A stretch of DNA of 64,000 nucleotides from Myxococcota bacterium (lineage in GTDB: Bacteria > Myxococcota_A > UBA9160 > UBA4427). How positions within the stretch are numbered: position 1 is the stretch's first letter; the number at the start of each line of letters is the position of its first letter. Below are positions 301 through 62,559 of the stretch, in pieces. The notes under the pieces were generated by a model. It did not search any database and was not told the DNA's origin. It worked only from the letters and a program-made list of their open reading frames with translations. Both the position numbers and the translations under genes were made by a program. Where the stretch lies: contig JAQWRT010000010.1 in the NCBI GenBank assembly GCA_029243605.1, positions 64,175-128,174 of the forward strand, given 5' to 3'.

Positions 301-1044
301 ATGGCCGTAGAGAACGAATACATCGATATCCCGACCCCCGATGGAAGCCAGATGAGGGGATATCTCGCGCGACCGGCGGGAGATGAAATCCTTCCCGGTG
401 TCGTGATCTTCATGGAAATCTTTGGCATCAACTCCCATATTCGTGACGTCACCGAACGAATCGCTGCCGAGGGCTTCGTTGCCCTGGCCCCGGACTACTT
501 CAACCGAACGGCGCCTGGCATGGAACTTGGCTATGACGACGACGGCATGAGCGAGGGAATGAAGCACCTAGGGCAACTCCAGGCCGATCAGATGATTTCC
601 GATGCCCAGGCCACCATCGCCCTACTCGAATCCCGCCCGGATGTCGGCGGAGCGGGCATTGGGGCCATGGGCTTCTGCATCGGCGGACATATGGCCTTTC
701 TGACCGCCTGCACCAGTCACGTTCGCGCCACGGCCTCTTATTATGGAGGCGGTATTGCCGCGCCCCAGGGGCCGGGAGGAAGTGAATCGACCCTGGGCCG
801 CACCGCTGGCATCGGCGGACGCATCCATTGCTATTTCGGCGGTCAGGACAGCATGATTCCCGCCGATCAAGTCGACGCCGTTCGGGCTGCGCTGACTGAG
901 GCCAAGGTCGATCACGAGGTTCAGGTCTATCCCGAGGCGGACCACGGCTTCCATTGCGACCAGCGCGGTACGTTCAACTCCGATGCCGCCGCCGACGCCT
1001 GGCAGCGAACAATTGCCCTCTTCAACCAGCAGCTTCGCGACTAG
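301..1044 (+). CDS. dienelactone hydrolase family protein
   Basis: 247 aa. The N-terminus (IDIPTPDGSQMRGYLARPAG...PGVVIFMEIFGIN) and GFCIGG nucleophile-elbow region are typical of DLH alpha/beta hydrolases. An AAGGAG Shine-Dalgarno lies 7 nt upstream of the ATG. Confidence 0.85.
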   Translation: MAVENEYIDIPTPDGSQMRGYLARPAGDEILPGVVIFMEIFGINSHIRDVTERIAAEGFVALAPDYFNRTAPGMELGYDDDGMSEGMKHLGQLQADQMISDAQATIALLESRPDVGGAGIGAMGFCIGGHMAFLTACTSHVRATASYYGGGIAAPQGPGGSESTLGRTAGIGGRIHCYFGGQDSMIPADQVDAVRAALTEAKVDHEVQVYPEADHGFHCDQRGTFNSDAAADAWQRTIALFNQQLRD

Positions 1045-1101: not shown

Positions 1102-2175
1102 CTAGTTCGAAAGCGGGACCGATTTCCCCGAGAGCTGACTTTCCACGAGCATCCCGCAAGCGATCCACTTGTCCCGTGTTCTCTCGGTGATCAAGCCCAG
1201 GCGAATCAGGTTTGGGACGACAGTGTGCATATACAACTGGGAATTGAGCTCATTCCATTCGGGCATGGCGAGCATTCCCTCGGTGACCTGGTTCGCATCG
1301 ATTCCGTATTTCGGTCCGAGAGCGTGAAGCATCCCCAACTGCTGGGAAGCGTTGAGCGCTTCGAGGACCTTGAAGGCCCAATCTTCCATCTGATCACGCT
1401 GCTCAGGCTCAGCGCGCTCCACCACTCGACGCATGGTGAAAACCCCGAAGGCTGCGTGCCGCGCCTCGTCTTGTTCGGCTCGCTGGAGCAACTTCACCAG
1501 GAGAGGGTTGAAGGCCTGCTCGCGCATCATGCCCATAATTCCCACGGCCATTCCCTCGAAGAGGGTCTGCATCCCGAGGGTTTTCATATGGTAACCCTCC
1601 ACCACCAAGAGTTCGTCGAGGAGGAATTTTAAGGTCGGCATGATGGGATAGATCGTGCCCATCTTTTCTCCCGTCAGGCGAGCGAAAATCTCGATATGCC
1701 GAGCCTCATCGGCGACCTGGTTGGCTGCGTAGAGCTTTTCGTCCGTGGTCGGGCAGAGTGAGGTCAACTGGCCGCAGAGTTGAAGAGCCGCCTGCTCGCC
1801 GTGCAAAAGCTGGGAGCAGGTGTAGGCAACCTCGTCAAACATGGCTGCCTTCTGTTCGGCCTCGCTTTTCCCCATCATCTTCAACAGGTTGGCGAGCATC
1901 GACATGTCGAGTTCGCCCATCCACTCGTCCTTGCTCACCGGGGTTTCCCAATCCAGGTCCTTCGAAGCGTTCCACTGATTGGCTTTGCCCTTCTCGTAGA
2001 GCGACCTCAGTTCTTCAACTTCACTTCCGTATTCCCAATCGTTCCAGCGAATATGGGTTGGCGTGTCGACGGAAAGGGTTTCTCTCATAGAGGAAATCTC
2101 TTCCGAATCTGCAAAGTCAATCAGCTCAAAGCCCGCCACGGATCGCCGGGTGTGGTTCAGAAATTTGGAATCCAA
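1102..2175 (-). CDS. ferritin-like di-iron carboxylate oxygenase family protein (AurF-like four-helix-bundle type; substrate unknown)
   Basis: 357 aa with two E-x-x-H motifs (ADEARHIEIF and QDEARHAAFG), each preceded by an acidic helix (LHGEQAAL, LFEGMAVG). This is the spacing expected for a di-iron centre. Confidence 0.65.
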   Translation of the reverse strand: MDSKFLNHTRRSVAGFELIDFADSEEISSMRETLSVDTPTHIRWNDWEYGSEVEELRSLYEKGKANQWNASKDLDWETPVSKDEWMGELDMSMLANLLKMMGKSEAEQKAAMFDEVAYTCSQLLHGEQAALQLCGQLTSLCPTTDEKLYAANQVADEARHIEIFARLTGEKMGTIYPIMPTLKFLLDELLVVEGYHMKTLGMQTLFEGMAVGIMGMMREQAFNPLLVKLLQRAEQDEARHAAFGVFTMRRVVERAEPEQRDQMEDWAFKVLEALNASQQLGMLHALGPKYGIDANQVTEGMLAMPEWNELNSQLYMHTVVPNLIRLGLITERTRDKWIACGMLVESQLSGKSVPLSN

Positions 2176-2211: not shown

Positions 2212-3306
2212 TTAGCGGCCCAGAAGATCTTGCAATGCATGGGTCTGGGCGGTCTCGTCGTCACCGACATCCAGGTTGGTATTGCGCGACCCCCCGAAAT
2301 TATTCAACCCCAGACGCTCGCGGAATTCCCCCGAGCCCACCCGGGTTCCCTCATCCAAAGGGATCCCGATACTATCGGCCACTCGGACCAAGCCGTTAAA
2401 ACTTCCCACTGTCGCTGCCGCCTGCACCAAAGCTTCCTCGCCCGCAGCGGCGAGCAATTGTCCGCGCACCTCGGCGAGTTCCTCGCTTCCTCGGGTCGCG
2501 GCCTCGGCGAAGGCGATGAGAAGCCCTCCATGGGGAACCCCTCCATCGCCGTGGCCCACCGCTGCATCGAGTTCCGCTTCCTCGCCAATCGCCTCGCTGC
2601 TCGCACGGAGCAGCAATACATGCGAGGTCGTTCAGTAGAAACACTCGTTCACCGAGGACACCCTAGCCGCGACGAGTTCGACCTGGGGGCGCGAGAGGGC
2701 GCTTTCATCCCAGACCAATTCGGAGAAGCGCTTCAGCGCGTACATGCTGCCGACCAATCCGAAAAAGGCTGCATTGTCTAGGGGCACAAGACCCAGGGCT
2801 TTGGAGACGTTCGGCCCCGGAAGGCCCTTCGCCGTGGGAACAAAGGCTCCGGCTTCTGCCACACCCTCGGGCCGAACCCGATCGGGCTCTCCCGGCAAAG
2901 CCGCCGGCAAGGGCTCAAGATCAACGCCGAGAGCTTCGGCGAAGGCATCGATGACCGTCGTGCAAACCACGACGGCGCAAAGTTCGGCGTAGGCGGCATC
3001 GCCAAACTCCTCAACCCAGTCCGCGACCCACTCGGCGTTCAGGGCATGAACATCCACCGCGACCTTGAGCACGAGTTCCACCGCCCGGTCGGGGAGAATG
3101 TCCGGCTCGGAGAGAGGGGCCGTCCGCTGCCACGGGGGAAGACTCCGGCGGCTCCGAACGTCTCGAGCCAGACGGGCAGCCTCCACCCGCTGAGTTCCAG
3201 TCCACCAGGAGCCCGGCGAGGCGATCCGGTGCCAGGCCGAACGGTGAGCGTCCGCGATCTCTTCCGGTACCGCGTGGGGGGACGAGGCGTAAAGAAAGGA
3301 ATTCAC
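2212..3306 (-). CDS. AhpD/carboxymuconolactone-decarboxylase-like redox protein, candidate selenoprotein (in-frame UGA at 2632-2634)
   Basis: Track ORFs 2632..3306(-) and 2212..2616(-) are in the same frame, separated only by TGA plus 5 sense codons. The read-through junction is ...VNE-C-F-Y-[UGA]-T-T-S-H-VLLLRASSEA..., which equals the AhpD-family C-x-x-C-x-x-x-H active-site spacing with UGA in place of the second Cys. The downstream piece has only a TTG 'start' and no Shine-Dalgarno. GTG start at 3306. Confidence 0.6.
2594..2616 (-). promoter_or_regulatory. SECIS-like mRNA hairpin downstream of the in-frame UGA
   Basis: The mRNA reads UGA-ACGACCUCGCAUGUA-UU GCUGCUC CGUGC GAGCAGC GA. It forms a 7-bp perfect G/C-rich stem (2608-2614 with 2596-2602), extendable by U.G and U-A pairs. 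The 5-nt apical loop CGUGC contains GU. The stem starts 15 nt after the UGA and the loop starts 24 nt after it. Confidence 0.45.
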
Positions 3307-6521: not shown

Positions 6522-7070
6522 ATGATGAGGGTCAAAAAAAATTTCGGATTTACACTGATTGAACTGATGATCGTTGTTGCGATCATCGGGATTCTCGCCG
6601 CCACGGCTATACCCAGTTATCGCCGGTTTCAACTGCGAAGCAAGACCACCGAGGCCAAGATCAACCTCGCATCGATCAAGACCGCAGAGTTGGCCTACGC
6701 CGCCGAGTACGGTGGCTTCATCGCATCCGGACTCTCACCTTCGACCCTGGGCGGCGCACAAGCTCAACCCTTCATCGATACTGGAAACCCGGGACAAAAC
6801 TTCGCCAGCCTCGGCTGGGAACCCGAAGGCAAAGTCTATTTTCAATACCAGGTGGCCTCCACCGGCGATGCTTTCTCGGCGGCGGCTAGGGCCGATATTG
6901 ATGGCGACAGCACACCTCAAATATGGGGATATGTCCAACCCGCGACCAGTGGCGCGATTGCCGCAATCCCCTTCGGCTGTGCGGGAATCTACAATCCTAT
7001 TACTCAGACCTTCGACCTCGTTCAGTCGACGGGCCCCTGTCAGGCCTCTCACGGACAAAGCGTCTTCTAG
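6522..7070 (+). CDS. pilA: type IVa pilin (PilA-like major pilin)
   Basis: Class III signal/N-methylation motif MMRVKKNFG|FTLIELMIVVAIIGILAATAIPSY with Glu at +5. A C-terminal Cys pair (GCAGIYNPITQTFDLVQSTGPC) fits a D-region disulfide loop. Confidence 0.9.
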   Translation: MMRVKKNFGFTLIELMIVVAIIGILAATAIPSYRRFQLRSKTTEAKINLASIKTAELAYAAEYGGFIASGLSPSTLGGAQAQPFIDTGNPGQNFASLGWEPEGKVYFQYQVASTGDAFSAAARADIDGDSTPQIWGYVQPATSGAIAAIPFGCAGIYNPITQTFDLVQSTGPCQASHGQSVF

Positions 7071-7142: not shown

Positions 7143-8411
7143 TCAACGATCGACGAGATAGAGACTGAGGGCGGGCCAGTACGTGATCAGCAATACCGTC
7201 AAGAGCAAGATCACGAAAAAGGGAATCGTGGCGCGGTAGACCTCGAGTACGGGCCGATCGAAACGATAGCTGGCGATGAAGAGATTCATGCCCACCGGGG
7301 GCGTGATGTAGCCAATTTGCATATTGGCCAGGAAAATAATCCCCAGGTGAACCGGGTCGATCCCGTAACCGATGGCGATGGGCAGGATGATGGGAACTAT
7401 GATCACCAGCGCGGAGAAAATATCGAGCATCATCCCCAGCCCGAGCAAAAAGATATTGAGCAAGATAAGAAAAGTGAGCTTGCTATCGACATGGGCGCGC
7501 ACCGTGTCGAAGAGCTTGGTTGGAACCTCGGCATCGATCAAGTAGTTGGTCGAGGCCATCGAGACGCCAAGGATGATAAAAATCGCCCCGACGAGAACCA
7601 TGGACTCGCGCATGATCTCCGGCAGTTCACGCAGAGAGATTTCCCGGCGAATGAAAACCGTGATTACGAGCACGTAGAGCGCTGTCACCGCAGCGGCTTC
7701 CGAGAGCGCAAAATAGCCCCCGTAGATTCCGCCTAAGACCACCACTGGGAGGGGGATTTCCCATGCGGCTTCTCGAATCGCCGCGAAGGCCTCGGATCGC
7801 GAGAACCGGTGGTTGGTATCCACGATGCCCCGGGCTCGCCACATACTATAGAGGGCGAGTAACAGGACCATCAGGAGACCAGGAAGAAGGCCTGCGGCAA
7901 AAAGGTCGTCGATGCGAATCGCCTGATCGAGATTCATCTGCTGAGCGACGACGCCGTAAAGGATCAGGGGAAGGGCCGGAGCAAAGAGAAGTCCGAGACT
8001 TCCCGAGGTCGTAACCAAACCCAAGCTGAAGTTTTCCGGGTAGCGCGCCTCCTTCAGCGCTGGGTAGAGCAGCGCCCCCAGGGCAACGATGGTCACTCCC
8101 GAAGCCCCGGTAAACGCGGTGAAGAGCGCACAGGCCACCAGGGAAACAATGGCCAGGCCGCCGCTCAACCAACCGAGGACCGCGTGAGTCAAACGGACAA
8201 GGCGGGCTGGGGTGCCGCTCTCCCCGAGTAAGTAGCCGGCAAAGGTAAAAAGAGGGATCGCCAGCAGAACGGGCGTTTCGGCCAGGCGATAGATCTCGAT
8301 TCCCATGACCTGGAGATCAACGTCCTCGCCCGAAAAGCCCAGCATTGCGCTGGCGGCGATGACCGCGAAGAGGGGCGTGCCCACCAGGGCCAGTAAGCCG
8401 AAGAGGACCAT
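7143..8411 (-). CDS. dctM: TRAP transporter large permease subunit (DctM family)
   Basis: Polytopic protein of about 423 aa starting MVLFGLLALVGTPLFAVIAASAMLGF, with a typical DctM sequence throughout. The start is re-set to ATG 8411, 5 nt after the dctQ stop. The track ORF to 8636 overlaps dctQ and is over-extended. Confidence 0.9.
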   Translation of the reverse strand: MVLFGLLALVGTPLFAVIAASAMLGFSGEDVDLQVMGIEIYRLAETPVLLAIPLFTFAGYLLGESGTPARLVRLTHAVLGWLSGGLAIVSLVACALFTAFTGASGVTIVALGALLYPALKEARYPENFSLGLVTTSGSLGLLFAPALPLILYGVVAQQMNLDQAIRIDDLFAAGLLPGLLMVLLLALYSMWRARGIVDTNHRFSRSEAFAAIREAAWEIPLPVVVLGGIYGGYFALSEAAAVTALYVLVITVFIRREISLRELPEIMRESMVLVGAIFIILGVSMASTNYLIDAEVPTKLFDTVRAHVDSKLTFLILLNIFLLGLGMMLDIFSALVIIVPIILPIAIGYGIDPVHLGIIFLANMQIGYITPPVGMNLFIASYRFDRPVLEVYRATIPFFVILLLTVLLITYWPALSLYLVDR

Positions 8412-8416
8412 GGGGA

Positions 8417-8971
8417 TCACGACGCACTCCCCGAAGCGACGCCGCTTCCCCCGCTGCCCGCCCCGAGATCGCCGGTCAGCAACGACTTCACCTGACCCAG
8501 GGCACGAAGGCCATAACGCAGGGCGATCAGTCCGAACGCCACAGGAATCACGATCTCGAACATCCAGGCGGGAATATCTGAAAAAGCAGTGCTGCCGAAC
8601 TCCCGCTCGTCCGCGACGAAGCGCCCCGAATTCCACGAAACGATCCCGGCCACAGCCGCGGTGAACGAGCCCGTCAGGATTCCCAGCACCGCTGCCGCTC
8701 GGGGTGAAAGCAATTTTGAGGCAGCGTCAATGCGTATATGCCGATCCGATCGGCTGGCGGCCACCGCACCCATCAGGCCTACCCAGAGAACCAGCACCCT
8801 AAGCAGGGGGTCGATCCAAACGATTCCGGCATCGAAGAAATTGCGCAGGAAGATCTGCAGGGGGGCGAGGACCACCATGGCTCCCAGAAGCAGAGCCAAG
8901 AAAACATCCTCAAGCCTGTACAAGACTCGAAGGATGCCTCCCGCTTCCTTCTCCCCCGGGCCGGCGCTCAT
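8417..8971 (-). CDS. dctQ: TRAP transporter small permease subunit (DctQ family)
   Basis: 184 aa with four hydrophobic helices, sitting between DctP and DctM. An ATGA start/stop overlap with dctP (8968-8971) implies translational coupling. Confidence 0.8.
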   Translation of the reverse strand: MSAGPGEKEAGGILRVLYRLEDVFLALLLGAMVVLAPLQIFLRNFFDAGIVWIDPLLRVLVLWVGLMGAVAASRSDRHIRIDAASKLLSPRAAAVLGILTGSFTAAVAGIVSWNSGRFVADEREFGSTAFSDIPAWMFEIVIPVAFGLIALRYGLRALGQVKSLLTGDLGAGSGGSGVASGSAS

Positions 8972-9999
8972 TCCGGAACAGCCGCCCCGCTGCGGTGCTC
9001 CTGAAGGAGGGTGAGAATTTGATTAATGGTCTCTTCTGAGTAGCGCCCGGTTCCTCGCAACTGGGTGATGGCCTGGGCGCTGATGCTTCGCCAGCGCTGC
9101 ACTTCCTCTCGGGAAGAGGCCGAAACGAACTCGATCCCCTGGCTCTTCAGAGCCTCCCGGGCGTTACTTTCGTCGGCACGGTTCACTTCATCAAGCCTGC
9201 TCGCTGCCGCCGAAACCACCTCGCGCACAACTTTTTGATCCTTGGCGGAGATTTTCGAGAAAGCTCTCTGGTCGACAGCGAAAATTCCAACCAAATACAT
9301 GATGGGAACCTCGGTGAGATACTTGACTCGCGTATGCCATTGGAAGGCGATGGCCCCGATCGGCGGAGCCGCCACCGTGTCCACCAGCCCGGTCTGGAGC
9401 GCGGTATAAACGTCGGCGATCGGCAGGGGAACCGGAGCAACCCCAGCAATGCGAAGAGCCACATCGGTCATCGTGTCACCTTCGACCAACCAGACCCGCG
9501 TACCCTCCATGTCTTCAACTCTGCGGATGGGCTTCTGGGAGAGCACATAGGCAAAGCCTCCATCGGTAATGGCGAGAGCCTCGAAACCATTCTGAGCTAG
9601 GCCTTTCATGATCTTCTGATCAAGCTGGCTGCGGACGAAATCGACTTCTTCGTAATCCCTGAACAGGAGAGGAAGGCTGTAGAGTTCGGCGTCGGGGTAC
9701 ACCGCCGCCAGGGCTCCGCTGGTAAATGCCCCCCCCTGCAACTGTCCAGCTCGAACCTTGCGCATGACGGTCTTATCACCACCCATCACACCACCGGGGT
9801 AGAACTTGAGCTTGACTCGCCCCTGAGTCCTCTCCTTGATCTCGTCACCCGCTTTTCGCATTTCCGCCAACCAACTGCTTCCATCGGGAAGGATTGTGGC
9901 GATCTTCAGAGTTCGCGCGGAAGCTTCGGCTCCAGCCATCCCCAGCGACAGGCCGACGAGCGCGATGACAGCCCGGAACGAAACCAGTTTGCGACGCAT
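8968..9999 (-). CDS. dctP: TRAP transporter substrate-binding protein (DctP family)
   Basis: 343 aa with a signal peptide, then RTLKIATILPDGSSWLAEMRKAGDEIKERTQGRVKLKFYPGGVMGGD..., typical of DctP-type SBPs. Confidence 0.9.
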   Translation of the reverse strand: MRRKLVSFRAVIALVGLSLGMAGAEASARTLKIATILPDGSSWLAEMRKAGDEIKERTQGRVKLKFYPGGVMGGDKTVMRKVRAGQLQGGAFTSGALAAVYPDAELYSLPLLFRDYEEVDFVRSQLDQKIMKGLAQNGFEALAITDGGFAYVLSQKPIRRVEDMEGTRVWLVEGDTMTDVALRIAGVAPVPLPIADVYTALQTGLVDTVAAPPIGAIAFQWHTRVKYLTEVPIMYLVGIFAVDQRAFSKISAKDQKVVREVVSAAASRLDEVNRADESNAREALKSQGIEFVSASSREEVQRWRSISAQAITQLRGTGRYSEETINQILTLLQEHRSGAAVPE

Positions 10000-23848: not shown

Positions 23849-25237
23849 GTGGAGCGCAGAAAGTGCGGGTCCCGGCGCACCCGGAGTAACCCCGGCCTCC
23901 AGTTCACCCTGATTTGCCTGGCGACTCTGGCGCTCTCGGGCTGTGCGACCTACTCCGATCGTATGCTGGAGGCCCAGCATGACGTGGAAGCAGGCCGCTA
24001 TGAAGAGGGTATAGATCGGATCAACAGGGCGGCGGGCCTGCCCGATGACGGCTCCCTCCCCACGAGCCTGAATTCAGAATCAGCCCTCGGAGTCCTCAAC
24101 CGAGCCACCCTGGAACAGGCGCTCTTCCGCTTCGATCAGAGCAGCCAAGACTTTCAGTCCGCCGACGCCGAGCTCGAGTACCTCGATATCGCGAACGATT
24201 CGGCGGGGGAGATCGGGCGCTATTTCTACAGTGACTCGGCCACCCGCTACCGCTCGTCGCCAACCGAGAAATTGGCGCTCAACGCCTTCAATATGATGAA
24301 CTACCTGGCGCTGAACGATCTCCAGGGGGCTCGAGTAGAGAGCCGTCGCTTCACAGTCATGCAACGCTATCTCGACGAATATTCAAAGGGTCAGCCCCAC
24401 GCCGCATTCGGATCCTATCTCGCCGGATTCGTGCTTGAACGACTGGGCGAATACACGGGCGCCATGCGCTACTACGACGAAGCTCTCGCGGTCGGAGATT
24501 TTCCATCGCTCAAGCAACCGGTCGACCGTCTTTCGGAGTTGACACCCTACCGCGGTCGCGCGATCGAAAAAGTACTCGCTTTGCCGGACGCACCTGGTCG
24601 CCCCGGAAAAACGGGAGATGCCGAGTCCATGGCTGAACTCCTCGTCGTCGTCAGTATCGGGAGGGTTCCCTACAAAATTCCCAAGCGAATCCCCATCGGT
24701 GCGGCCATCGGCCTGGCTGGAAGCCGCATCAGCGGCGACCCCGCCGTGCTCGGCTATTCGGCCTTCAAATTTGTCGTCTACCCAGGGCTAACCCACCCCC
24801 CGAGCCTCTATTCCGGTGTCGGCCTTCGGGTGGATGGACGACTCGCACAGCCCGACCTCGCCACTCGACTGGGCGCGGAAATCACGAACGAATATAAGCG
24901 CATCGAACCTTCAATCATCGCCGCTGCCCTATCCCGGATGATCGTCCGGGCAGCCGCTTCCGAGGGAATGAGGGCAGCGGGCAAGGAATCGGGAAGCGGT
25001 CTTGGCTGGGCTCTGGCCCTGGCTACCGAGGCGACACTGGTGGGGCTCGACAAACCCGATACTCGGTCGTGGATATTCCTGCCCAACCGTGTCTACGTCT
25101 ACAGAACCCGCCTGCCTCCAGGCAAGCACACGGTGGAGGTTCGCCTCGAGGGCGCGGGTGCCGAGGCAACCCACGTAAGCGAAGTGGAAATCCCAGCAGG
25201 CGAATTCGCCGCGATTATTCTCACCGCGCCCCGCTGA
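23849..25237 (+). CDS. conserved lipoprotein with N-terminal TPR-like region (COG3014-like), function unknown
   Basis: 462 aa with a classical lipobox LALSGC|ATYS. Helical repeats lie at the N-terminus (EAGRYEEGIDRINRA...). It starts 15 nt after the LpoB-like gene, so the two are probably co-transcribed. Confidence 0.5.
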   Translation: MERRKCGSRRTRSNPGLQFTLICLATLALSGCATYSDRMLEAQHDVEAGRYEEGIDRINRAAGLPDDGSLPTSLNSESALGVLNRATLEQALFRFDQSSQDFQSADAELEYLDIANDSAGEIGRYFYSDSATRYRSSPTEKLALNAFNMMNYLALNDLQGARVESRRFTVMQRYLDEYSKGQPHAAFGSYLAGFVLERLGEYTGAMRYYDEALAVGDFPSLKQPVDRLSELTPYRGRAIEKVLALPDAPGRPGKTGDAESMAELLVVVSIGRVPYKIPKRIPIGAAIGLAGSRISGDPAVLGYSAFKFVVYPGLTHPPSLYSGVGLRVDGRLAQPDLATRLGAEITNEYKRIEPSIIAAALSRMIVRAAASEGMRAAGKESGSGLGWALALATEATLVGLDKPDTRSWIFLPNRVYVYRTRLPPGKHTVEVRLEGAGAEATHVSEVEIPAGEFAAIILTAPR

Positions 25238-44425: not shown

Positions 44426-46105
44426 ATGGCGGAAACCTCCAGGTCTGAAAGCAGCGAAAAGCCCGACGACCCCTCCAGCGCCTGGGGCGGGATGACGCTC
44501 CTCGCCGGGCTGGCGATCCTTGCCCAACTCCCCCTCTATGACCGCAGCCTGGTCCCTATGGACGAGGGCCACCTGCTCGCCGCCAGCGATGCCCTGGCCG
44601 CGGGGAAACGTCTCTATGCAGACATCCACACGGGCATCTTTCCCGGAATCTACTGGGTCGCCGCCGCGCTCCTCGAATGGCTCGGGCGCGACGCTCTGGT
44701 TCTTCGAGGCGCCGCACTCGTGACCAATAGCGTCACAGCGCTTGCCCTCTACGCGATCGGGCGGCGCATGGTGGCGCCCTATTGGGCCTGGCTCCCGCCC
44801 CTTCTCTATCTGGCCCTCATCGTCGTTTCCTTCCCCGTACTCTCCATGTTCAATTATTCGACCCTCGCGGTGGCCCTGGGCCTGCTGGCGCTTCTCTTTC
44901 TGCTCCGATACCTCGAACGCGGACGCGCCTGGGAGGGCGTCGTTCTAGGACTCTTGATCGCCGCCGCCGCCCTGACGAAACAGAATTTCGGCGGTTTGAT
45001 TTTCGTCGCCCTGCTGATCGCCTTCGTCCTGGCTCGGCGAGACTCGGCCCTCGCCGGCAAGGGCCTTCTTTCGGGGCTTCTCCCCGTCGTCGCCGGAGGC
45101 CTAGGGTTGACCCTGGCTGCGTTTCTAGCGTTATGGATGCCAGGGGCGTTCCCCGCATTCCTCGATCGAACGATTTTCTCTCTCTTCGGATCGCAACTCC
45201 AGGACTTCAACAATCCGATTCCTCCCATTTTCGGCGCCCACCCGGCGGAGGACGGTCGCTTCGTCTTCCTCTACACGCCGCCGACTGTCTTCAACGCCCT
45301 GGTTCACGGCCAACCCTACGCGGGCTTCTCGCTAACCCCGCTCCTGCGCTCGCTTTCAATCCGGCTCAGCTACGGAATTCCTCTCGCGGCACTCATCCTG
45401 GCACCGGCCCTCTTCTTCTTTACGCGCCACTGGGGTGTAAAGGCCGCCCGCAACGCCGCACGCTCCGCTGTCATCTTCGCCGTCGTCTTTTCACCGGGAA
45501 TCTTCCCCTCGGCGATTTGGTCCCATCTGGCGTTCGTCTTGATCCCCATCCTGCTCCTCTTTGCTTTCCTCGGTGATCGCGTCGAAAAGATCTTGCAGCG
45601 GCGTCGGGTCGCGGCCGGTCTCTGGCGAATTCTTGCCGGGGTACTCACCGCAATCGCCCTCATCATCGCCACCAGAACCGCACTCTCGGTTATGGACTTC
45701 TACCCCGAGCCCCTCGGACTTGAACGCGCTTCCCTCCACGTCTCAGCCCGAGATGCCGACCTCCTGAGCGGAGCCGTACGATTTATCCAGGAATGCAGCG
45801 AGCCGGGTCAGCCCGTACTCATCCTGCCGGATATCCCCGCGCTTTATTTTCTCGCCGACCGGCCCAACCCCTCGCCCTTCGATCTGGCGATTCCCGGAAA
45901 CGTCGATGGCCCGCTGATCGCCCGGCAGGCCGAGGCGGCCCAAGTTCGATGCGCGGTGCTCAACCCTCGCATGTACCCAGAATTTCCTCCCTTTGAGCAG
46001 CTTTTCCCCCAGCTCTCAGCGCATCTCGAAAGCGAGTTCCGAATCGTCCGGGAAATCCGAGGCGGAAACTCCCTCTGGTTGGGGCTGGTCCGTAGATCCC
46101 GCTGA
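44426..46105 (+). CDS. GT-C-fold (PMT/ArnT-like) polytopic membrane glycosyltransferase candidate, paralog A
   Basis: 559 aa with a Shine-Dalgarno AAAGGGAG upstream. The first loop motif is LVPMDEGHLL, followed by G-x2-LY-x-D...PG and KQNFGG. There are more than 10 TM helices and a C-terminal periplasmic module shared with paralogs B and C. Confidence 0.6.
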   Translation: MAETSRSESSEKPDDPSSAWGGMTLLAGLAILAQLPLYDRSLVPMDEGHLLAASDALAAGKRLYADIHTGIFPGIYWVAAALLEWLGRDALVLRGAALVTNSVTALALYAIGRRMVAPYWAWLPPLLYLALIVVSFPVLSMFNYSTLAVALGLLALLFLLRYLERGRAWEGVVLGLLIAAAALTKQNFGGLIFVALLIAFVLARRDSALAGKGLLSGLLPVVAGGLGLTLAAFLALWMPGAFPAFLDRTIFSLFGSQLQDFNNPIPPIFGAHPAEDGRFVFLYTPPTVFNALVHGQPYAGFSLTPLLRSLSIRLSYGIPLAALILAPALFFFTRHWGVKAARNAARSAVIFAVVFSPGIFPSAIWSHLAFVLIPILLLFAFLGDRVEKILQRRRVAAGLWRILAGVLTAIALIIATRTALSVMDFYPEPLGLERASLHVSARDADLLSGAVRFIQECSEPGQPVLILPDIPALYFLADRPNPSPFDLAIPGNVDGPLIARQAEAAQVRCAVLNPRMYPEFPPFEQLFPQLSAHLESEFRIVREIRGGNSLWLGLVRRSR

Positions 46106-46162: not shown

Positions 46163-48331
46163 GTGCGGGACCTTCTACGGCAACTGGGAATCTTGGAGCG
46201 ACCCGCCTGGCTCTATCTCGCCATTGCCGGATTGGCTCTGGCTTTTGGTTGGCCGCTCTGCCAGCGGGCGATCATCCTCTCCGATGAGGGCTACCTCCTT
46301 CAGCAAGCCCTCGACCTCCTCGAGGGCCGGGTGCTCTACCGCGACATGGATGCCTTCATCACCCCGGGCATCTGGTTCACTCTGGCCGGTGTCTTCGCTG
46401 TCTTTGGCCCGAGTGTTCTGGTCTCCCGAGTCGTAATCCTCATCGTCTATCTGGCCCTGGCTCTCACGGGCTACCGAATCGTCACTCCCATCGCCGGAAG
46501 GAAGTGGGGGCTGGCGAGCGTGGCCTGCCTCCTGCTCTTCTCCGTCTGGGCTTTTCCGGCCTGGACCTTCGCCTTCTATTCACCGGTGGCCGTGGTGCTC
46601 GCCCTCGCAGGAATCGAACGTCTGATGCGCTGGCAACGCCGCCGCGCCATCGGCGACCTCGCATGGATGGGTGCGCTCATCGGCTTGTCGATCTGCTTCA
46701 AGCAGAACTACGGGGTCTTCGCCGCCCTGGCGGCGATCCTGGGCTACGCGGCCACTCACCTCGAAGCAAAGGACTGGCGAGGGAGCGCGCGGGAGGTCGG
46801 CGTGGCTTCGCTTGCGGCCATCGCGGTGGGCTCTCCCTTCCTCCTCTACCTGATCACCCAGGGCGCCCTGGGCGATGCCTGGACGAGCCTTGTTGTTCAC
46901 CCCTTCGAATTCGGGGGACGGCACGATATTCCCTACCTGGGAATCTCGACTCTCTGGCAGGCGGATCCCTTTCAGACCGGAGCCGAGAAGCTCACCTACC
47001 TGTCTTTTCCCGCGCTCAATACCGCCCCGCTTCCGCTACCGGGTGGCCAGGGTCTGGTCATCTGGCTCCATGTGCTGGCCTACTGGATCGCCCCCCTGAT
47101 GATTTCCGGAGGCTTTCTCGTCGCCTTGGCCTCTGGGAGAGCGCGCGGTGGGCGCATTGATCCTGGGCTCTTCACCATCAACGCCGCCGCCGGACTCATC
47201 TTTCTCGGTGTTTTTCCCCGGGCGGATTTCAACCACCTCGTCAACGTTTACCAACCGATCCTCATCGCCGGCCCCCTGACCCTCCAGCGTCTTTTTGAAT
47301 TGCTCCGGGGGCGTGCTGACCGCTTGCGGCGTGTCCTCGCCACGGTCGCGGCCCTCACCGCGATTCTCTATGGAGCCATCGCACTCTTCTGGTATGTGGG
47401 CCTGATCCAGCGATTGAGCGTCCCCCTGGAACAACCCCGGGCCGGGGTTCTGGTCAGCCCACTCGAAGCCCTGGAGATCAATTACCAGGTGCGACTGATT
47501 CGCGACCACACGCCCGAGGGGGGAGCCCTGCTGACCCTGCCAGATCTCACCATGTTGAATTTTCTCGCCGAACGCGAAGTCCCCAGCGCCTGGTACAACC
47601 TCTACGAGCACCATATCGCGAACGATCGTGGCCGAGGCGTCGCTGAGGCCGCCGAAGAAAAGAACGTTCGCTACGCCGTGGCGCGCTTCAACAATTTCTT
47701 TTCCGACCGGGTTGGTCTGCTCGATTACGCCCCCGATCTTGCCGACTACTTGATCTCGAATTTCGAAAGGAGTTTCGTCGGCGGACGCGAAAACTATATC
47801 GTCTACACCCGACGCGATGAGCCCGAGGTGCAGCACCCCTATATCGATTTATTGGCGAGTTGCGATGTCGAAGACCCGGGAGAGGAAATCCGCAAACATC
47901 TGCTCTTCTCCGCCCTCTATCACAAGGGGCGGAAGGGTTCGCCCATGACCGAGGAAGGCCTAGTCACTCGCTGCCAGGTTCAGGTACCCGAAGGTGGAGG
48001 CGTACTCGCCCTGGAAGTCGGCTACCGGAAACCTTTCCGGTCGGATCGGGGTACACGACTCGATATTTCCATCGATCTCGTGGACGAAAAAAGTCGCCAG
48101 CCGATCCTCGAAGAACGACTTCCCGTCATCCCCTGGCAGGATTCTCCGCGACAGCAAGCCTTCAAGCGCTTCGAGATCGACCTCGAACCCTGGGCGGGAA
48201 GAACGGTCGACCTCGAGTTTGCAACCCACTTGCAAGGGACAATCCAGGATTCGGTCTTGGACCTCAAAGGCTTCGCAATGATCTACCGCGATCCACGACT
48301 TCAAACGAAGGCCGGCGGAGCGCGACCATGA
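46163..48331 (+). CDS. GT-C-fold (PMT/ArnT-like) polytopic membrane glycosyltransferase candidate, paralog B, with extra beta-rich C-terminal domain
   Basis: 722 aa with a GTG start. Motifs are IILSDEGYLL, GRVLYRDMDAFITPG and FKQNYGV. The C-terminal extension ends ...FEIDLEPWAGRTVDLEF..., similar to paralog C. Confidence 0.6.
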   Translation: MRDLLRQLGILERPAWLYLAIAGLALAFGWPLCQRAIILSDEGYLLQQALDLLEGRVLYRDMDAFITPGIWFTLAGVFAVFGPSVLVSRVVILIVYLALALTGYRIVTPIAGRKWGLASVACLLLFSVWAFPAWTFAFYSPVAVVLALAGIERLMRWQRRRAIGDLAWMGALIGLSICFKQNYGVFAALAAILGYAATHLEAKDWRGSAREVGVASLAAIAVGSPFLLYLITQGALGDAWTSLVVHPFEFGGRHDIPYLGISTLWQADPFQTGAEKLTYLSFPALNTAPLPLPGGQGLVIWLHVLAYWIAPLMISGGFLVALASGRARGGRIDPGLFTINAAAGLIFLGVFPRADFNHLVNVYQPILIAGPLTLQRLFELLRGRADRLRRVLATVAALTAILYGAIALFWYVGLIQRLSVPLEQPRAGVLVSPLEALEINYQVRLIRDHTPEGGALLTLPDLTMLNFLAEREVPSAWYNLYEHHIANDRGRGVAEAAEEKNVRYAVARFNNFFSDRVGLLDYAPDLADYLISNFERSFVGGRENYIVYTRRDEPEVQHPYIDLLASCDVEDPGEEIRKHLLFSALYHKGRKGSPMTEEGLVTRCQVQVPEGGGVLALEVGYRKPFRSDRGTRLDISIDLVDEKSRQPILEERLPVIPWQDSPRQQAFKRFEIDLEPWAGRTVDLEFATHLQGTIQDSVLDLKGFAMIYRDPRLQTKAGGARP

Positions 48332-55964: not shown

Positions 55965-57347
55965 ATGAAGCGCAGTTCATGGATCAGCATGACCAGACCC
56001 AAACGAGAAATCCGGAAGGAACCGGGGTGGCGAAAGCTGGCAATCGCCCTCGCCCTGCTTCCCCTGATCCTCGGAGCCCCGGGCTGCCAACCCGAGTCCG
56101 ACCCGCCCCGGATCTTGATCATCGGCATCGACGGTGCGAGCCCCGAGGTCGCGTTTCCCATGATGAAGGCCGGCCGGCTCCCGCATCTCGCAGAGATTGC
56201 CGCGACCGGGGTTCATGGTCCCCTACGGTCGGTACTCCCGCTCTATTCACCGCGTATCTGGAATACCATCGCGACCGGAGTCAAGCCGAACGTCCACGGA
56301 ATTCCCGCTTTCGTCAAGCCCGCGACCGGAGGGGGCAAGGCGCTCTACTTGAGCAGCGATCGTAAGGTCCCTGCGCTCTGGAATATCCTCTCGGACCGAG
56401 GACGTAGCGTCGGGGTCGTGAACTGGTGGACTACTTTTCCGCCCGAGAAGATCGAAGGCGTCATGGTTTCGGATCATTTTTTTCCCGAACAGATCGACAT
56501 GATCAAAAAAACCTTCGCCGCCGATCGAGCCTCCGAGGGGGCGCTTATCCACCCGCAGTCCTGGACGCCGCGCGCCGAGGAACAGCTCAAGAACCCGGCC
56601 TCCCTAACTGAATTTGAAAATTTCTTCGACGGCGCGGCCGAGTTGCCCCGCTGGGTCAATCGCTCGCTCCTCAGCCAGCAATTTGTCACCGACCAGGAAA
56701 TCACCCAGGTCGCCCTCGCCCTGGATGCGGATCACCACCTCGACGTGATGATGGTCTTCCTGCCCGGCATCGACCGGGTATCCCATTGGCTCTGGGGCAA
56801 TCTCGAAGCCGAGGATCTCTACCCTCCGACCCTGCAGCCCTCACCCGAGGAACGCGCTGGGGGCGCCGAAGCCCTGCGCGCCTACTACGCCTACACCGAT
56901 GCGCTAATCGGCCGTCTGGTCGCGGGCTATGGCCCCGATGACATGGTTTTGGTGATTTCGGACCACGGCTTCGAAGCCGGAGTCAGCTTGATGTTGTTGA
57001 CGGGCGCTCACGACTCCCCCTCGGCTCTTGACGGGGTTCTCTTTGCCCGCGGGCGCGGCATTCCCCGAGGCCAAGCCGCGGGCCCGGTCAATGTCTACGA
57101 GATCGCGCCCTCGGTGCTGACCTTCGCGGGCCTTCCCTCAGCCCTGGACATGCAAGCGGGGCCCGCGAAATTCCTGGCCGATCTCTCGCGACCCGACCCC
57201 GTCGCGAGCTACAACGCGATCGCCATCGAGCGGTACGCCCCCTCGGCCTCGGGCCATGAGGAGGAGATCATCGAGCACCTCCGAGCCCTGGGTTATCTCG
57301 AGGAAAAGGAAGCGCCCGCCCAGGATCAAGAGCAGGCCCCCCCTTGA
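55965..57347 (+). CDS. alkaline-phosphatase-superfamily phosphodiesterase / nucleotide pyrophosphatase-like protein (probable lipoprotein)
   Basis: 460 aa with leader ...LLPLILGAPGC. The metal/nucleophile region reads ILIIGIDGASPE...LPLYSPRIWNTIATG, with VISDHGFE near the C-terminus, as in PF01663-type enzymes. Confidence 0.8.
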   Translation: MKRSSWISMTRPKREIRKEPGWRKLAIALALLPLILGAPGCQPESDPPRILIIGIDGASPEVAFPMMKAGRLPHLAEIAATGVHGPLRSVLPLYSPRIWNTIATGVKPNVHGIPAFVKPATGGGKALYLSSDRKVPALWNILSDRGRSVGVVNWWTTFPPEKIEGVMVSDHFFPEQIDMIKKTFAADRASEGALIHPQSWTPRAEEQLKNPASLTEFENFFDGAAELPRWVNRSLLSQQFVTDQEITQVALALDADHHLDVMMVFLPGIDRVSHWLWGNLEAEDLYPPTLQPSPEERAGGAEALRAYYAYTDALIGRLVAGYGPDDMVLVISDHGFEAGVSLMLLTGAHDSPSALDGVLFARGRGIPRGQAAGPVNVYEIAPSVLTFAGLPSALDMQAGPAKFLADLSRPDPVASYNAIAIERYAPSASGHEEEIIEHLRALGYLEEKEAPAQDQEQAPP

Positions 57348-60004
57348 AAGAGTCCCTGGAGAAGAGACTCGCCCAGGGCGTCGCGGCATGGGTCGCGGGT
57401 GTCCAGCGGCGCTCGGGTTGGGTGATTGGCCTCTGTGCTGGGCTCACGGTCTTCGCCGGCCTTTACGCCGTAAGCGAACTCGGCGTCAATTCCGACAACG
57501 TTCAGATGGTCGCCGAAGACCTGCCCTCTCGGCGCAATCACGAAGCCTTTGCCCGGCTCTTTCCCAACCTCGAAAACGCCCTGCTCGTGGTCATCGACGC
57601 TCAGACCCCGGAACTCGCGCGCGAAGCCGCTCAAACCCTCGAGACCCGGCTGCTCTCGGATTCGGAATTCGTCGAGAAGGCCTATGTGCCCGGGGGTGGC
57701 GAATTTTTCGAAACCCACGGGCTCCTCTATCGAGACGTCGACGAACTCGACACCTTTGGCGATCAGATGGCGCGCATGCAGCCGATCCTCGCCGCCCTCG
57801 AGCAGGACCCCACCCTCGCCAACCTCGCGTCGCTCATCGAAGTCGGCCTCGAGGAGACGAACCAGACCGGCGCGGCGGCTCAAGTGGGCCCCGAGGGTTG
57901 GGCTGAAATCCTCGAGTCCGTGGGCAACGCGACGGTGGCGGTCTACAGCGAGTTCCCCTTGGCTCTGTCCTGGGAGCAACTCCTCCTCCAGGGCTCCGAG
58001 GTCGAGGTCGCCCGGCGCCGGGTGCTGGTGGTTCACCCCGTCCTCGACTTCGAGAGTTTTCTGACCGCGGGCACGGTTATGGAACGCATTCGGGAGCACG
58101 CCCGAGAACTCGGCTTTACCCCGGCTCGGGGCGTGGAGATTCGGATTACGGGCAACCCGGCGCTGAACTACGAGGAGGTACTGGGCCTGGCCTGGGATCT
58201 CGGCCTGGGCGGAGTGGTCTGCTTCTTCTTCGTCGCGGGGGTTCTGACTCGAGCGCTCCGCTCTCTCAAACTCGTCGCCGCTGCCCTCGCCACCCTGCTC
58301 GTCGGCTTGGTCTGGTCTGCTGCGACCGCAGCCGCGGTGGTGGGGCATCTGAATCTCGTCTCCGCCGCTTTCGGGGTGCTCTTCATCGGACTCGGAGTCG
58401 ACTTCTCCATCCATCTCGGCATGGCGTACGCCGGCCGGGTCCGCGAGGGACTCGGACACGACCGGGCGCTCTTTGAAGCGGGGGGCAGCGTGGGCGGTTC
58501 GCTTCTCATCTGTACCCTGACCACCGCTATCGGCTTTTTCGTTTTCGCTCCCACCGATTATCTCGGGGTCGCGGAACTCGGACTGATCGCCGGCTACGGC
58601 ATGTTCATCATTCTCTTCCTGACCCTCACGCTCTTCCCCGCCCTTCTGAGCCGCTGGCTCAGAATCGAGAGTCCCGATGAAGTCGCCGGAGAACTCCATT
58701 TTCGCTCCACCTGGTGGCGATTTTCCGAAACCCATCCGGGGCTGGTTCTCGCCAGTGCGCTCGTGCTCTTCGCAGCCAGCCTCGCTCTCCTTCCCCGGGC
58801 ACGCTTCGATCTGAATGTCATCGAGATGCGCGACGCCACCACGGAGTCGGTGCAAACATTCAACGATCTGCTCGCACAATCGGGCACCATGTCGCCCTGG
58901 TTCGTCAACTCGGTGGCTCCGGACCTTGAGAGTGCCCAGGTCCTCGCTCGCGAAATGAAAAAACTCGAGAGCGTCGCATCGACCCTCACCCTGAGCGATT
59001 ACGTACCCGAGGATCAGGACGAAAAGATCGAGATCCTCACGGATCTTGGCTACCTGATGGACACTCCCCCTCTGGCCCCGGGAGATCGGCCGGACAGCGA
59101 CCTCGCGAGTCAAATCGCCGCTCTCGAAAACCTCTACGCCTATCTCGGAGCCGATTGGGTCGATGGCGATTCACCCTCGGAATTGATCGCCAGCGTTCGC
59201 GTGCTGCGGGAAAAGCTCGCGATCTTCCTCGCCCGGGTCCAGACCGACGAGGATCCGGGCGCTGCCCTCGACAAACTCGATCAACTCCTGCTTTCGGGAC
59301 TCCCCGATCAGGTCGCCCGTTTGAAGACCGCCATTGGAACGGGAACCGTGGTGCGCGCGGACCTGCCCGATGATCTCGTTGCGCGCATGATCGCCGCGGA
59401 CGGTCAGGTCCGGATACAAACCTTTCCCAAGCACGATTTGGGGAACGAAGCCGCCTTTATCCGTTTTACCGAGGACGTTCAGTCCGTCGATCCCCTGGCC
59501 GCGGGCGTCGCCATCAATCTCGTAGGCTTCGGCCAAGCCACTCGCTCTTCCTTCCAAGAGGCACTCGCCTCCGCCATCACGATCATCACCCTGCTCCTGC
59601 TCGCTCTCTGGCGGCGCATTGGCCCGGTCCTGCTCGTGCTCTCCCCCCTGGCGTTGAGTTCTCTGATGACCGTCGCCGCCATGGTGCTCTTCGATATCCC
59701 GTTCAATTTCGGAAATATCATCGTGATCCCCCTGCTCCTCGGGATCGGCGTCGACAGCGGGATCCACTTGGTCCAGCGCGCCCAACAAACCGGCGGCAAC
59801 GCCGGGGACCTGATGGACAGCACCACCGCTCGGGCGGTCTTCTACAGCGCGCTCACCACCACAGTCAGCTTCGGCACCCTGGCCTTCTCCAGCCATCGCG
59901 GCATGGCCAGCCTCGGCGTGGTGCTCTCCATCGGCATGGTCGCCACGGTGATCGGCAACCTGATCGTGCTTCCGGCGCTGCTGACTCGCTTCGGCCGAAG
60001 CTAG
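57344..60004 (+). CDS. MMPL/RND-superfamily exporter, HpnN-like
   Basis: 886 aa with two 6-TM bundles, each preceded by a large periplasmic domain. The N-terminus (RRSGWVIGLCAGLTVFAGLYAVSELGVNSDNVQMVAEDLPSRRNHEAF...) resembles hopanoid-associated HpnN-type RNDs. The TTG start overlaps the upstream stop (TTGA). Confidence 0.75.
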   Translation: MKESLEKRLAQGVAAWVAGVQRRSGWVIGLCAGLTVFAGLYAVSELGVNSDNVQMVAEDLPSRRNHEAFARLFPNLENALLVVIDAQTPELAREAAQTLETRLLSDSEFVEKAYVPGGGEFFETHGLLYRDVDELDTFGDQMARMQPILAALEQDPTLANLASLIEVGLEETNQTGAAAQVGPEGWAEILESVGNATVAVYSEFPLALSWEQLLLQGSEVEVARRRVLVVHPVLDFESFLTAGTVMERIREHARELGFTPARGVEIRITGNPALNYEEVLGLAWDLGLGGVVCFFFVAGVLTRALRSLKLVAAALATLLVGLVWSAATAAAVVGHLNLVSAAFGVLFIGLGVDFSIHLGMAYAGRVREGLGHDRALFEAGGSVGGSLLICTLTTAIGFFVFAPTDYLGVAELGLIAGYGMFIILFLTLTLFPALLSRWLRIESPDEVAGELHFRSTWWRFSETHPGLVLASALVLFAASLALLPRARFDLNVIEMRDATTESVQTFNDLLAQSGTMSPWFVNSVAPDLESAQVLAREMKKLESVASTLTLSDYVPEDQDEKIEILTDLGYLMDTPPLAPGDRPDSDLASQIAALENLYAYLGADWVDGDSPSELIASVRVLREKLAIFLARVQTDEDPGAALDKLDQLLLSGLPDQVARLKTAIGTGTVVRADLPDDLVARMIAADGQVRIQTFPKHDLGNEAAFIRFTEDVQSVDPLAAGVAINLVGFGQATRSSFQEALASAITIITLLLLALWRRIGPVLLVLSPLALSSLMTVAAMVLFDIPFNFGNIIVIPLLLGIGVDSGIHLVQRAQQTGGNAGDLMDSTTARAVFYSALTTTVSFGTLAFSSHRGMASLGVVLSIGMVATVIGNLIVLPALLTRFGRS

Positions 60005-60032: not shown

Positions 60033-61582
60033 TCAGAATTCGATGCGGTCGTCCATCAAGCGGCGCAAGCGGTCCTCCTCCCGGCGCAGACGGACCGAGC
60101 GGCCCCCGGTGACGTAGACGAGCCCCTTCTTGGCACCTCGGGGCTTCGAGACCTGTTTGATCGGGACGACGTGCACCTCGGCGTGGCCGGCATTCTTCTG
60201 CTTCGAAAAATGCACGGCCAACTCGCAAGCGTCGAGAACGGATTCCGGCGGCGGATCCTCCCGGCCTTCGGTGCGCAGAACGACGTGGCTGCCCGGCGCC
60301 CCGGCCAGGTGAAAGAAAAGATCCTTGCCCCGGGCAGGCGCGTCGTGAGATGATCGTTGCCCGCGTCGCTTCGGCCCACCCAGATCTCGAGGCCGTCCCG
60401 GCTCCGGTAACGCCGGGGGACGAGAGCCCGGTCGAGGCCTCGCAGCCGGGCCGGGAGCGTCGACTCCGGGGGCGGGGCGGCGCCGGGTGAGGCCTGGGCG
60501 GCTCGGCGGCGACCGAGCATTCGGGCGATCTCGGGATCCGCGGCAATCGCCTCGAGGCCGGCGGCGCGCTCGGCTTCCTCCTCGCCTTCCTCCCGGCCCC
60601 CCGCTTCGCCCTGCACCTCTTCGAGCCGCGCTTGCAGAGCGGTGAGCTTGTCTCGCCAGAGACGGGCTTCCTCGACCTGACCCCCGGCCTTGGTGAGCCG
60701 ACGCAGCAATTTCTGATAGCGCTTGAAGGTCGCCTCGAGGTTCTCCCGAGGGCCCAGGGTCGGGTCGAGGGCAATGGTGACCTCCTCGTCGGTGGCGTAA
60801 TCGCGCACACGAACCTCGCTCGCCCCTTTCCGGATCGAGCCGAGGGAGCCCTTGAGAAGTTCGCCGTGGCGCTGAAGTTCGCTGGCCTGATCGGCCTCGG
60901 CGAGTTCGGACTCGATCTTGCTCAGACGCCGCTCGGCGTTCTTGGTCTCGCGCTTCAAAACTTGTCGGATCTCCCGGGCGAGATCCACCGACTCGCGCTC
61001 GCCCTCGTCCGACGCGTAATGCGCTTCGGCGGCAGCGAGCCAATCGGGATCGGGCACCGAGGCAAAGCGATCCTCACCCGGGTTCGGCACGCCGCTCGAG
61101 GGCAAAGTGAACGCCGCACCGGGGACGAGTTCGGCCCGGGTCTCGGCGGGAGAGCGCAGGGCCAAGATCACCTGGCCGGGAGCGTCGACGAGATAGAGAT
61201 TGCTCCGCTTGCCGAGCAGGGAGAGCACCAACTCGACGCGCCCCTCGGCGGCCTCGAAGGCCAGTCCAAGAACGCGGTCGTCGCCCAGCATCCGGGCACC
61301 TTTGAACCGGGCACTCGGGAGGTGCGCACGAATCCAGCTGACGAAGGCCGGGGGGTTCGCCGGGGCCTTCGGGAGGCCCTCGACTTGGGAGACCCGACCC
61401 GACGCCGGGTGAACACAAAGCATGAGAAAACGCTTGCGCGCCTTTTCCTCACCCGGGGCCCGGCCGTAGAGGGTGAGCACGACCCGATCCCGAGAGGGCT
61501 GAACGCAGCGCTCGAGACGGTGGCCCGCAAAGCGCTCATCGATGATCCTGGCCGCCCGGCGCAATTCGTTGAGGTTCAGCAC
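60033..61582 (-). pseudogene. rqcH: NFACT-family protein (RqcH/FbpA-like ribosome-quality-control factor) interrupted by a single -1 frameshift
   Basis: The N-terminal NFACT-N, coiled coil and ...DGLEIWVGRSDAGNDHLTTRL lie in track ORF 60056..61582(-). The expected continuation ARGKDLFFHLAGAPGSHVVLRTEG... (NFACT-R/DUF814) lies in the -1 frame, in track ORF 60033..61043(-). The frames switch at the C/G run cttgccccgggcag (60324-60337). One missing base would restore CTG-GCC-CGG-GGC-AAG. Confidence 0.75.
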
Positions 61583-61603
61583 CTGAGTCCTCTCCCTGGC
61601 TCG

Positions 61604-62479: not shown

Positions 62480-62559
62480 GGACGAAAGCCAGTCTAGCCC
62501 GCATCCTTGGACAACCCCCCGCCCAAACCGGCAAACCCCCGGGCCCGGACGAGAACGCC

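Follow-up and report, generated by a model that had tools for sequence, protein, structure and literature searches.

A predicted SECIS hairpin downstream of an in-frame UGA in an AhpD-related selenoprotein gene of a Myxococcota bacterium

The 64,000 nt stretch of Myxococcota DNA analysed here (the window) carries on its minus strand an open reading frame, 3306..2212, whose translation has a single interruption, a TGA at 2634..2632, and a hairpin follows this codon. Is the UGA read as selenocysteine (Sec), and is the hairpin the SECIS element that directs it? From sequence comparison we consider it highly probable that the hairpin at 2616..2594 is a functional bacterial SECIS of an AhpD-related selenoprotein gene. 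Conservation within the family, loss from Cys forms and fit to the bacterial SECIS model (bSECIS) all support this proposal, which was made in a first-pass annotation of the window.

The AhpD-related selenoprotein gene (2212..3306, minus strand) starts with GTG at 3306, stops with TAA at 2214..2212 and encodes 364 residues, with the UGA (2632..2634) as codon 225. With the Sec residue entered as Cys, a profile search of the 364-residue protein gave a match to NCBIfam NF041238 of 312.3 bits (E=4.7e-93, cut-off 175 bits), covering residues 14-337 of the protein and positions 2-355 of the 357 in the profile. The full name of NF041238 is 'AhpD_rel_CFYUT alkylhydroperoxidase-related (seleno)protein', and the motif found here is the one in the name. 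The CMD domain, PF02627, was the sole Pfam match. Around the TGA the translation reads ...VSSVNECFY-*-TTSHVLLLRASSEA..., which places the codon in the predicted redox motif C222-F-Y-U225-T-T-S-H229 (2620..2643, minus strand). This CxxUxxxH motif is the AhpD-type CxxCxxxH with Sec at the second Cys position. The coding sequence 3' of the UGA (2212..2631, minus strand) comprises 139 residues, produced only if the UGA is read through. In GenBank the gene is annotated as its first 224 aa only, and a 100% identical entry, P0001, is a 'hypothetical protein' from a Myxococcota metagenome-assembled genome (MAG). The protein is also 100% identical to GenBank protein P8Q97_02165 and about 92% identical to its homolog on contig JAPKBZ010000025.1. 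In the databases the C-terminal part forms a gene call of its own, with an internal start just 3' of the UGA in most of the best 150 representatives.

The AhpD-like 1 selenoproteins (COG2128 / TIGR01926) also have a CMD/AhpD-type domain with CxxU. They are abundant in marine metagenomes, and marine habitats are common to both families. The protein described here scores 36.9 bits against TIGR01926, below the cut-off of 81.8, and has an additional N-terminal domain of approximately 190 residues; the two are separate families. A search of viral contigs found no relatives of the protein. Within its own family a subgroup (P0078, P0081, P0085, P0094, P0168, P0218 and P0228) carries an extra CxxC...(K/R)K insertion in the N-terminal domain, e.g. 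CPLCIERKAALSP. It includes Gammaproteobacteria-type members and all three full-length Cys forms (P0168, P0218 and P0228). The insertion may be a second redox or metal site, and the window protein does not have it.

The interrupting codon is shared by the relatives. A word-indexed search returned 96 clusters, all of about 224 aa and from gene calls stopping at the same codon, and 40 of 40 aligned database homologs end at ...CFY. In related genomes, tblastn homology crosses the UGA (query residues 1-364). A one-genome-per-species scan gave 173 relatives, and the best 80 loci of these 173 were compared together with the window. The 80 loci come from Myxococcota, Acidobacteriota (Multivorans and others), Actinomycetota (Acidimicrobiia), Chloroflexota (Dehalococcoidia) and Gammaproteobacteria. 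In these 81 sequences from at least five phyla the homologous codon is TGA in 90 of 91 sites; the sole exception, a TTA in the second copy of L040, lies 30 nt from a contig end. The 90 TGA sites in the 81 sequences (window plus 80 loci) constitute the Sec-form set used below, in which the C, F, Y and H of the redox motif are invariant. An exhaustive search with the C-terminal 139 residues matched 765 database proteins at E<=0.001, and the best 150 of these were nearly all orphan fragments starting just 3' of the UGA. The UGA is not reassigned and is an ordinary stop codon in the organism, since four family-confirmed genes in the window, GT2, DctM, DctP and GPH, all end in TGA.

The context of the UGA is biased (window 2635-2637 and 2629-2631, minus strand; alignment A2, columns 10-18). 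The base 3' of the UGA is A in 87 of 90 sites, and the following codon is ACG in 63 of 90, compared with a gene-wide ACG share of 0.30 of the Thr codons. The preceding Tyr codon is TAT in 59 of 90 sites and TAT is rare elsewhere (0.16); this bias may be phylogenetic, as the split between TAT and TAC largely follows lineage. In Dehalococcoidia the gene occurs as two tandem paralogs, the second approximately 1.1 kb downstream of the first, and a TGA and a hairpin are present in each. Tandem second copies were seen in L030, L034, L045, L046, L064, L065, L068, L073 and L076, and the second copy has a different loop (GGUCG or CGUCG) and more G-U pairs.

Turning to the hairpin itself, the first-pass annotation had described it as UU-GCUGCUC-[CGUGC]-GAGCAGC-GA, located 15 nt after the UGA, with seven perfect pairs extended by a U.G and a U-A pair. 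All of this is present in the window sequence at 2594..2616 (minus strand), where the 9 bp stem consists of a 5' arm at 2616..2608 and a 3' arm at 2602..2594 and has an energy of -13.1 kcal/mol. The spacer between the UGA and the hairpin (2617..2631, minus strand) is 15 nt long and codes for TTSHV. The described 5-nt loop with G-U was likewise found, 24 nt (2631..2608) after the UGA; this apical loop, CGUGC, occupies 2603..2607 (minus strand), and G2606-U2605 is the presumed SelB contact. Translation places the hairpin inside coding sequence, VLLLRASSEA, as had been noted. When the RNA from the UGA to 2594 is folded, the hairpin, -13.1 kcal/mol by itself, is the structure of minimum energy.

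It should be noted that the single-sequence evidence for the hairpin is only moderate. Shuffled controls, an earlier suggested check, gave a mixed answer: the 81-nt fold contains the hairpin and has z = -0.72 against shuffles, so that the single sequence is not distinguished, and the element stands out within its gene and across the family. A 45-nt fold reached z = -2.4, but its minimum-energy structure is a competing fold. In the window, with 62% G+C, 21 of 1638 TGA triplets (approximately 1%) have a comparable hairpin by chance, meaning a perfect one of at least 7 bp with G in the first two loop positions and at SECIS distance. The decisive evidence that the hairpin exceeds chance is comparative.

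Searched against Rfam, the whole window gave no match at gathering scores, and the region 2400-2800 at E<=10 gave only chance-level matches (E >=2) to unrelated lncRNA and sRNA models. A search of the window with the core motif returned the element itself as the sole match.

Two larger folds were considered and set aside. In the first (2590-2634, minus strand) the GAGGCG after the SECIS hairpin pairs with ACGACCUCGC just 3' of the UGA. This competing imperfect hairpin of 15 bp has -18.5 kcal/mol and would disrupt the SECIS; it can form in the window sequence and L001 and is not conserved in other homologs. Among the 90 homologs 56.6% of cells pair in the competing 45-nt fold, which starts 4 nt 3' of the UGA, and we regard it as local. 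The second, a lower-stem extension of the 81-nt fold (columns 20-25 with 62-67), was rejected with 49.4% of cells pairing.

Across the family, the alignment around the UGA spans 78 nt and is gapless in 90 sequences, which means that UGA and hairpin stand at a fixed distance. RNAalifold picks exactly five pairs, columns 35-39 with 45-49 (2612..2608 with 2602..2598), which together with the loop give a family-conserved core, UGCUC-CGUGC-GAGCA, at 2598..2612 (minus strand). The first-pass annotation had made its reading depend on a conserved structure in UGA orthologs, and such a structure was found: the five core pairs form in 90, 89, 89, 90 and 90 of the 90 sequences. The loop follows the pattern N-G-[U/G]-N-N, in which G2606 is invariant (90/90) and the next base, U2605 here, is a U in 76 sequences and a G in the other 14. 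An optional N1-N2 cross-loop pair is possible in 12 of 90 and not in the window sequence (C...C). When paired in register, 80% of cells form pairs, compared with 23-59% when the 3' arm is slid. A contiguous stem of 5-9 bp is present in 88 of 90 family members, and the energies average -11.0 kcal/mol, with 86 of 90 at or below -7.5. Ranked against all 23-nt segments of the gene that carries it, the hairpin lies in the top 1.4% (median). These data establish the structure, the fixed spacing and the conservation in the family.

Conservation fades towards the base of the stem. The outer pairs 2613/2597, 2614/2596 and 2615/2595 hold in 69, 67 and 60 of 90 sequences, and the U-A extension 2616/2594, which does pair in the window sequence, pairs in only 7 of 90 homologs and is hence local. 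Compensatory substitutions in orthologs, a check suggested earlier, were found in part: double changes are limited to two pairs of the outer stem, 33-51 with 4 sequences and 32-52 with 11. In the five core pairs no double change was seen in the 90 sequences, and there the evidence is invariance plus wobble-compatible single changes, U-A to U-G and G-C to G-U only. Judged from the alignment, only the upper 5-8 bp is family-conserved. As the competing fold and the lower stem are unconserved (57% and 49%, respectively), the conserved element is a minimal upper stem-loop of 5-8 bp.

The SECIS elements of Escherichia coli fdhF and fdnG are coding-sequence hairpins that follow directly on the UGA, show a G-U in the apical loop and are recognised by SelB. 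In fdhF the hairpin has about 40 nt, begins right after the UGA and carries a bulged U in the upper stem. The element described here is also a hairpin in coding sequence 3' of a UGA with a loop G-U, and would by analogy act in the same mode in outline. There is no sequence similarity between them, however, and the present element has neither the bulged U in the upper stem nor a conserved lower stem reaching to the UGA, the candidates for which pair in 49-57% of cells. What is conserved here corresponds to a minimal upper stem-loop only, and the element is outside the E. coli fdhF sequence and structure class.

The broader bacterial SECIS model is that of bSECISearch (Zhang and Gladyshev 2005), restated in Fig. 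2 of PMC13188914. In brief, it describes a loop of 3-9 nt, a stem of 4-16 bp, a distance of 16-37 nt from UGA to loop and an energy of -7.5 kcal/mol or lower; one of the first two bases of the loop is G, in most cases with G or U next (PMC13188914). The 16-37 nt spacing is likewise given in PMC10778597. The hairpin agrees with all criteria of this consensus model, having a 5 nt loop, a 7-9 bp stem, a distance of 24 nt and -13.1 kcal/mol. Loop position 2 is G and is followed by U, as in the N-G-[G|U]-N-N pattern of the model, and the stem-loop lies directly 3' of an in-frame UGA, within the ORF 3306..2212.

The closest published relative known to us comes from the Sargasso Sea selenoproteome (Zhang, Fomenko and Gladyshev 2005), whose published description includes a 'hypothetical protein 1' family with a conserved CXXU motif and, in Fig. 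3, a predicted SECIS whose small apical loop has a conserved G (PMC1088965). 'Hypothetical protein 1' is listed under NF041238 in PMC13188914. Both elements belong to the NF041238 family and share CxxU, a stem-loop just 3' of the UGA and the loop G, a likeness at the level of the published description rather than of a nucleotide comparison. The copy described here stems from a Myxococcota MAG and is annotated there as a hypothetical protein of 224 aa.

By analogy to known systems, recoding could proceed as follows. With the ribosome at the UGA (2634..2632), the hairpin would lie just outside the mRNA entry channel. SelB, carrying GTP and Sec-tRNA(Sec), would bind the G2606-U2605 loop and the upper stem via its C-terminal domain. 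Sec-tRNA(Sec) would thereby be locally concentrated around the A site and outcompete release factor 2, Sec would be inserted as residue 225 of the CxxU motif, and translation would continue for 139 codons. Binding of SelB to the loop and competition with RF2 are parts that we infer from the E. coli and Moorella systems.

Family members with Cys in place of Sec are rare and provide a natural control. None was found among the 96 close-homolog clusters (0/96). The best 150 C-terminal matches contained three full-length proteins in which Cys replaces Sec (CFYCTT, CFYCCT and CFYCTN), which with 410-427 bits are true NF041238 members, and a metagenome pattern scan for Cys forms returned 97 stretches, only one of which, L091, is in the family. 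The DNA of the three Cys proteins and L091 gave five Cys sites. It had been argued that the same hairpin in orthologs with Cys codons would make it unrelated to recoding; none of the five Cys sites has it. Their hairpin columns have -2.7, -1.8, -0.9, -1.0 and -8.1 kcal/mol, compared with the Sec-form mean of -11.0 (n=90). The helix is interrupted in the Cys sites, since just 4-5 of the 7 stem pairs are possible, and L081 also loses the loop-closing pair. Loss of the hairpin in the Cys forms is thereby established, and the element is, in line with the bSECIS model, present with UGA and dispensable in Cys homologs.

The best matched pair consists of the Cys form L081, in which MMLRSSS is encoded by ATG ATG CTT CGC AGC AGT AGC, and the Sec form L077, in which MMLRASS is encoded by ATG ATG CTC CGT GCG AGC AGT. 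Here the hairpin is gone despite a near-identical peptide. Given this pair and the lack of the hairpin in the Cys forms, the hairpin is linked to the UGA and dictates part of the peptide. At the Cys-form locus L082 there are two tandem paralogs, both with Cys.

A hairpin tied to the UGA might still be a functional RNA that does not recruit SelB, such as a pause site, a stability element or a site for another factor, with the UGA decoded in some other way. Such a role would be compatible with the lack of the bulged U of the E. coli fdhF SECIS. We know of no alternative UGA-decoding system with such a hairpin in these phyla. The element is present only with a UGA codon and absent with Cys, its distance is fixed within the 16-37 nt SECIS range, and G-[U/G] at loop positions 2-3 is the published bacterial SECIS signature (PMC13188914), all of which makes a function other than SelB recruitment highly improbable.

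The annotated gene models suggest a simpler account, in which the UGA is a true stop in a split gene or pseudogene and the hairpin is a chance G+C-rich palindrome or an intrinsic terminator. Gene callers and GenBank do annotate a 224-aa protein, and about 1% of window positions carry a comparable hairpin by chance. Nor was Sec machinery seen within the window: a tRNA search of the 64 kb found no tRNA gene and hence no tRNA-Sec, and selA, selB and selD were not among the 10 large ORFs scanned, although Sec genes need not lie near a selenoprotein gene. However, the stop falls inside the AhpD CxxC-type active-site motif, the same codon occurs in 90 sites in at least five phyla with in-frame homology continuing for approximately 120-139 residues, and full-length Cys forms exist. 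The hairpin is not an intrinsic terminator because no U-tract follows it; the next bases are GAGGCGAUUGG. We regard a true stop as extremely improbable here, and a recoded UGA followed by its SECIS as the better reading of the gene.

Other TGA-interrupted frames in the window were also considered as selenoprotein candidates, and none was convincing. At 23518 there is a CUPC-like case; its frame has many Ser, Arg and Pro residues and does not resemble coding sequence.

Codon usage in the Sec forms bears on whether the constraint acts on the RNA or on the protein. Third-position entropy in the six hairpin codons is 0-0.9 bit, and conserved codons further upstream reach 1.2-1.8 bit; for the invariant Arg, Ala and Pro codons located 6-19 codons upstream in these sequences the value is 1.6-1.8 bit. 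At +8 Leu uses CTC in 90 of 90 sequences, compared with a gene-wide share of 0.41. For Arg +9 only CGT and CGG occur, and the preferred CGC (background 0.44) is never used; Ser +11 and +12 are AGY only, never TCN (AGY background 0.36). Codon +10 encodes A, E, V, R or S and has G as its third base in 90 of 90, the base that forms the loop-closing pair with the C of CTC. The 17-nt core, CUGCUC-NG[U/G]NN-GAGYRG, is conserved near letter for letter across at least five phyla, and synonymous sites elsewhere in the gene are saturated. This codon pattern cannot come from selection on the peptide; the RNA is under selection. That the nucleotides are conserved for a peptide, LLRxSS, needed by the enzyme, with the hairpin incidental and without a role in recoding, is an idea to which the coding nature of the region, the highly conserved L, L and S in the Sec forms and the lack of double compensatory changes in the core pairs lend something, but it is largely refuted and extremely unlikely, as codon +10 switches amino acid yet keeps its third base, Leu is always CTC and Ser always AGY, and the protein does not require the peptide, given that Cys-form family members keep neither the Ser-Ser dipeptide nor its codons.

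The element is a correct recognition of an already known kind and an ordinary case. Nothing about it is new in kind, because the family and its SECIS were both predicted in 2005. What the present analysis adds is family-wide structural support, the limits of the conserved part, the evidence from synonymous sites, the Cys-form control and the finding that the gene is mis-annotated as two fragments. The last point matters for annotation, as nearly all relatives are called as a 224-residue 'hypothetical protein' and an orphan C-terminal fragment, and the real product is predicted to be a selenoprotein of 364 residues whose redox centre is CxxU. The family is furthermore a clean natural example, with matched Cys controls, of an RNA signal that overrides a codon, and even the choice of amino acid, within coding sequence. 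More tentatively, and with considerable doubt, we speculate that gene and SECIS form a travelling, self-contained recoding cassette served by divergent SelBs, that the family is near-obligately Sec-dependent and that the RNA dictates the Ser-Ser.

Several other genes were noted in the window. No NCBIfam match was obtained for the large ORFs 44426-46105, 46163-48331, 55965-57347, 60632-62497 and 23849-25237. Further features are a hopanoid-associated RND transporter, HpnN (57344-60004, plus strand; 831 bits), the DctM and DctP subunits of a TRAP transporter (7143-9999, minus strand) and a type IV pilin-like protein with an N-terminal methylation motif (6522-7070, plus strand). An AurF-like di-iron oxygenase gene (1102-2175, minus strand; PF11583, E=3e-12) starts 36 nt after the stop codon of the selenoprotein gene. 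It was considered as a conserved operon partner and rejected, the adjacency being common only to the near-identical locus L001. A dienelactone hydrolase gene (301-1044, plus strand) is also adjacent in L003 and L004.
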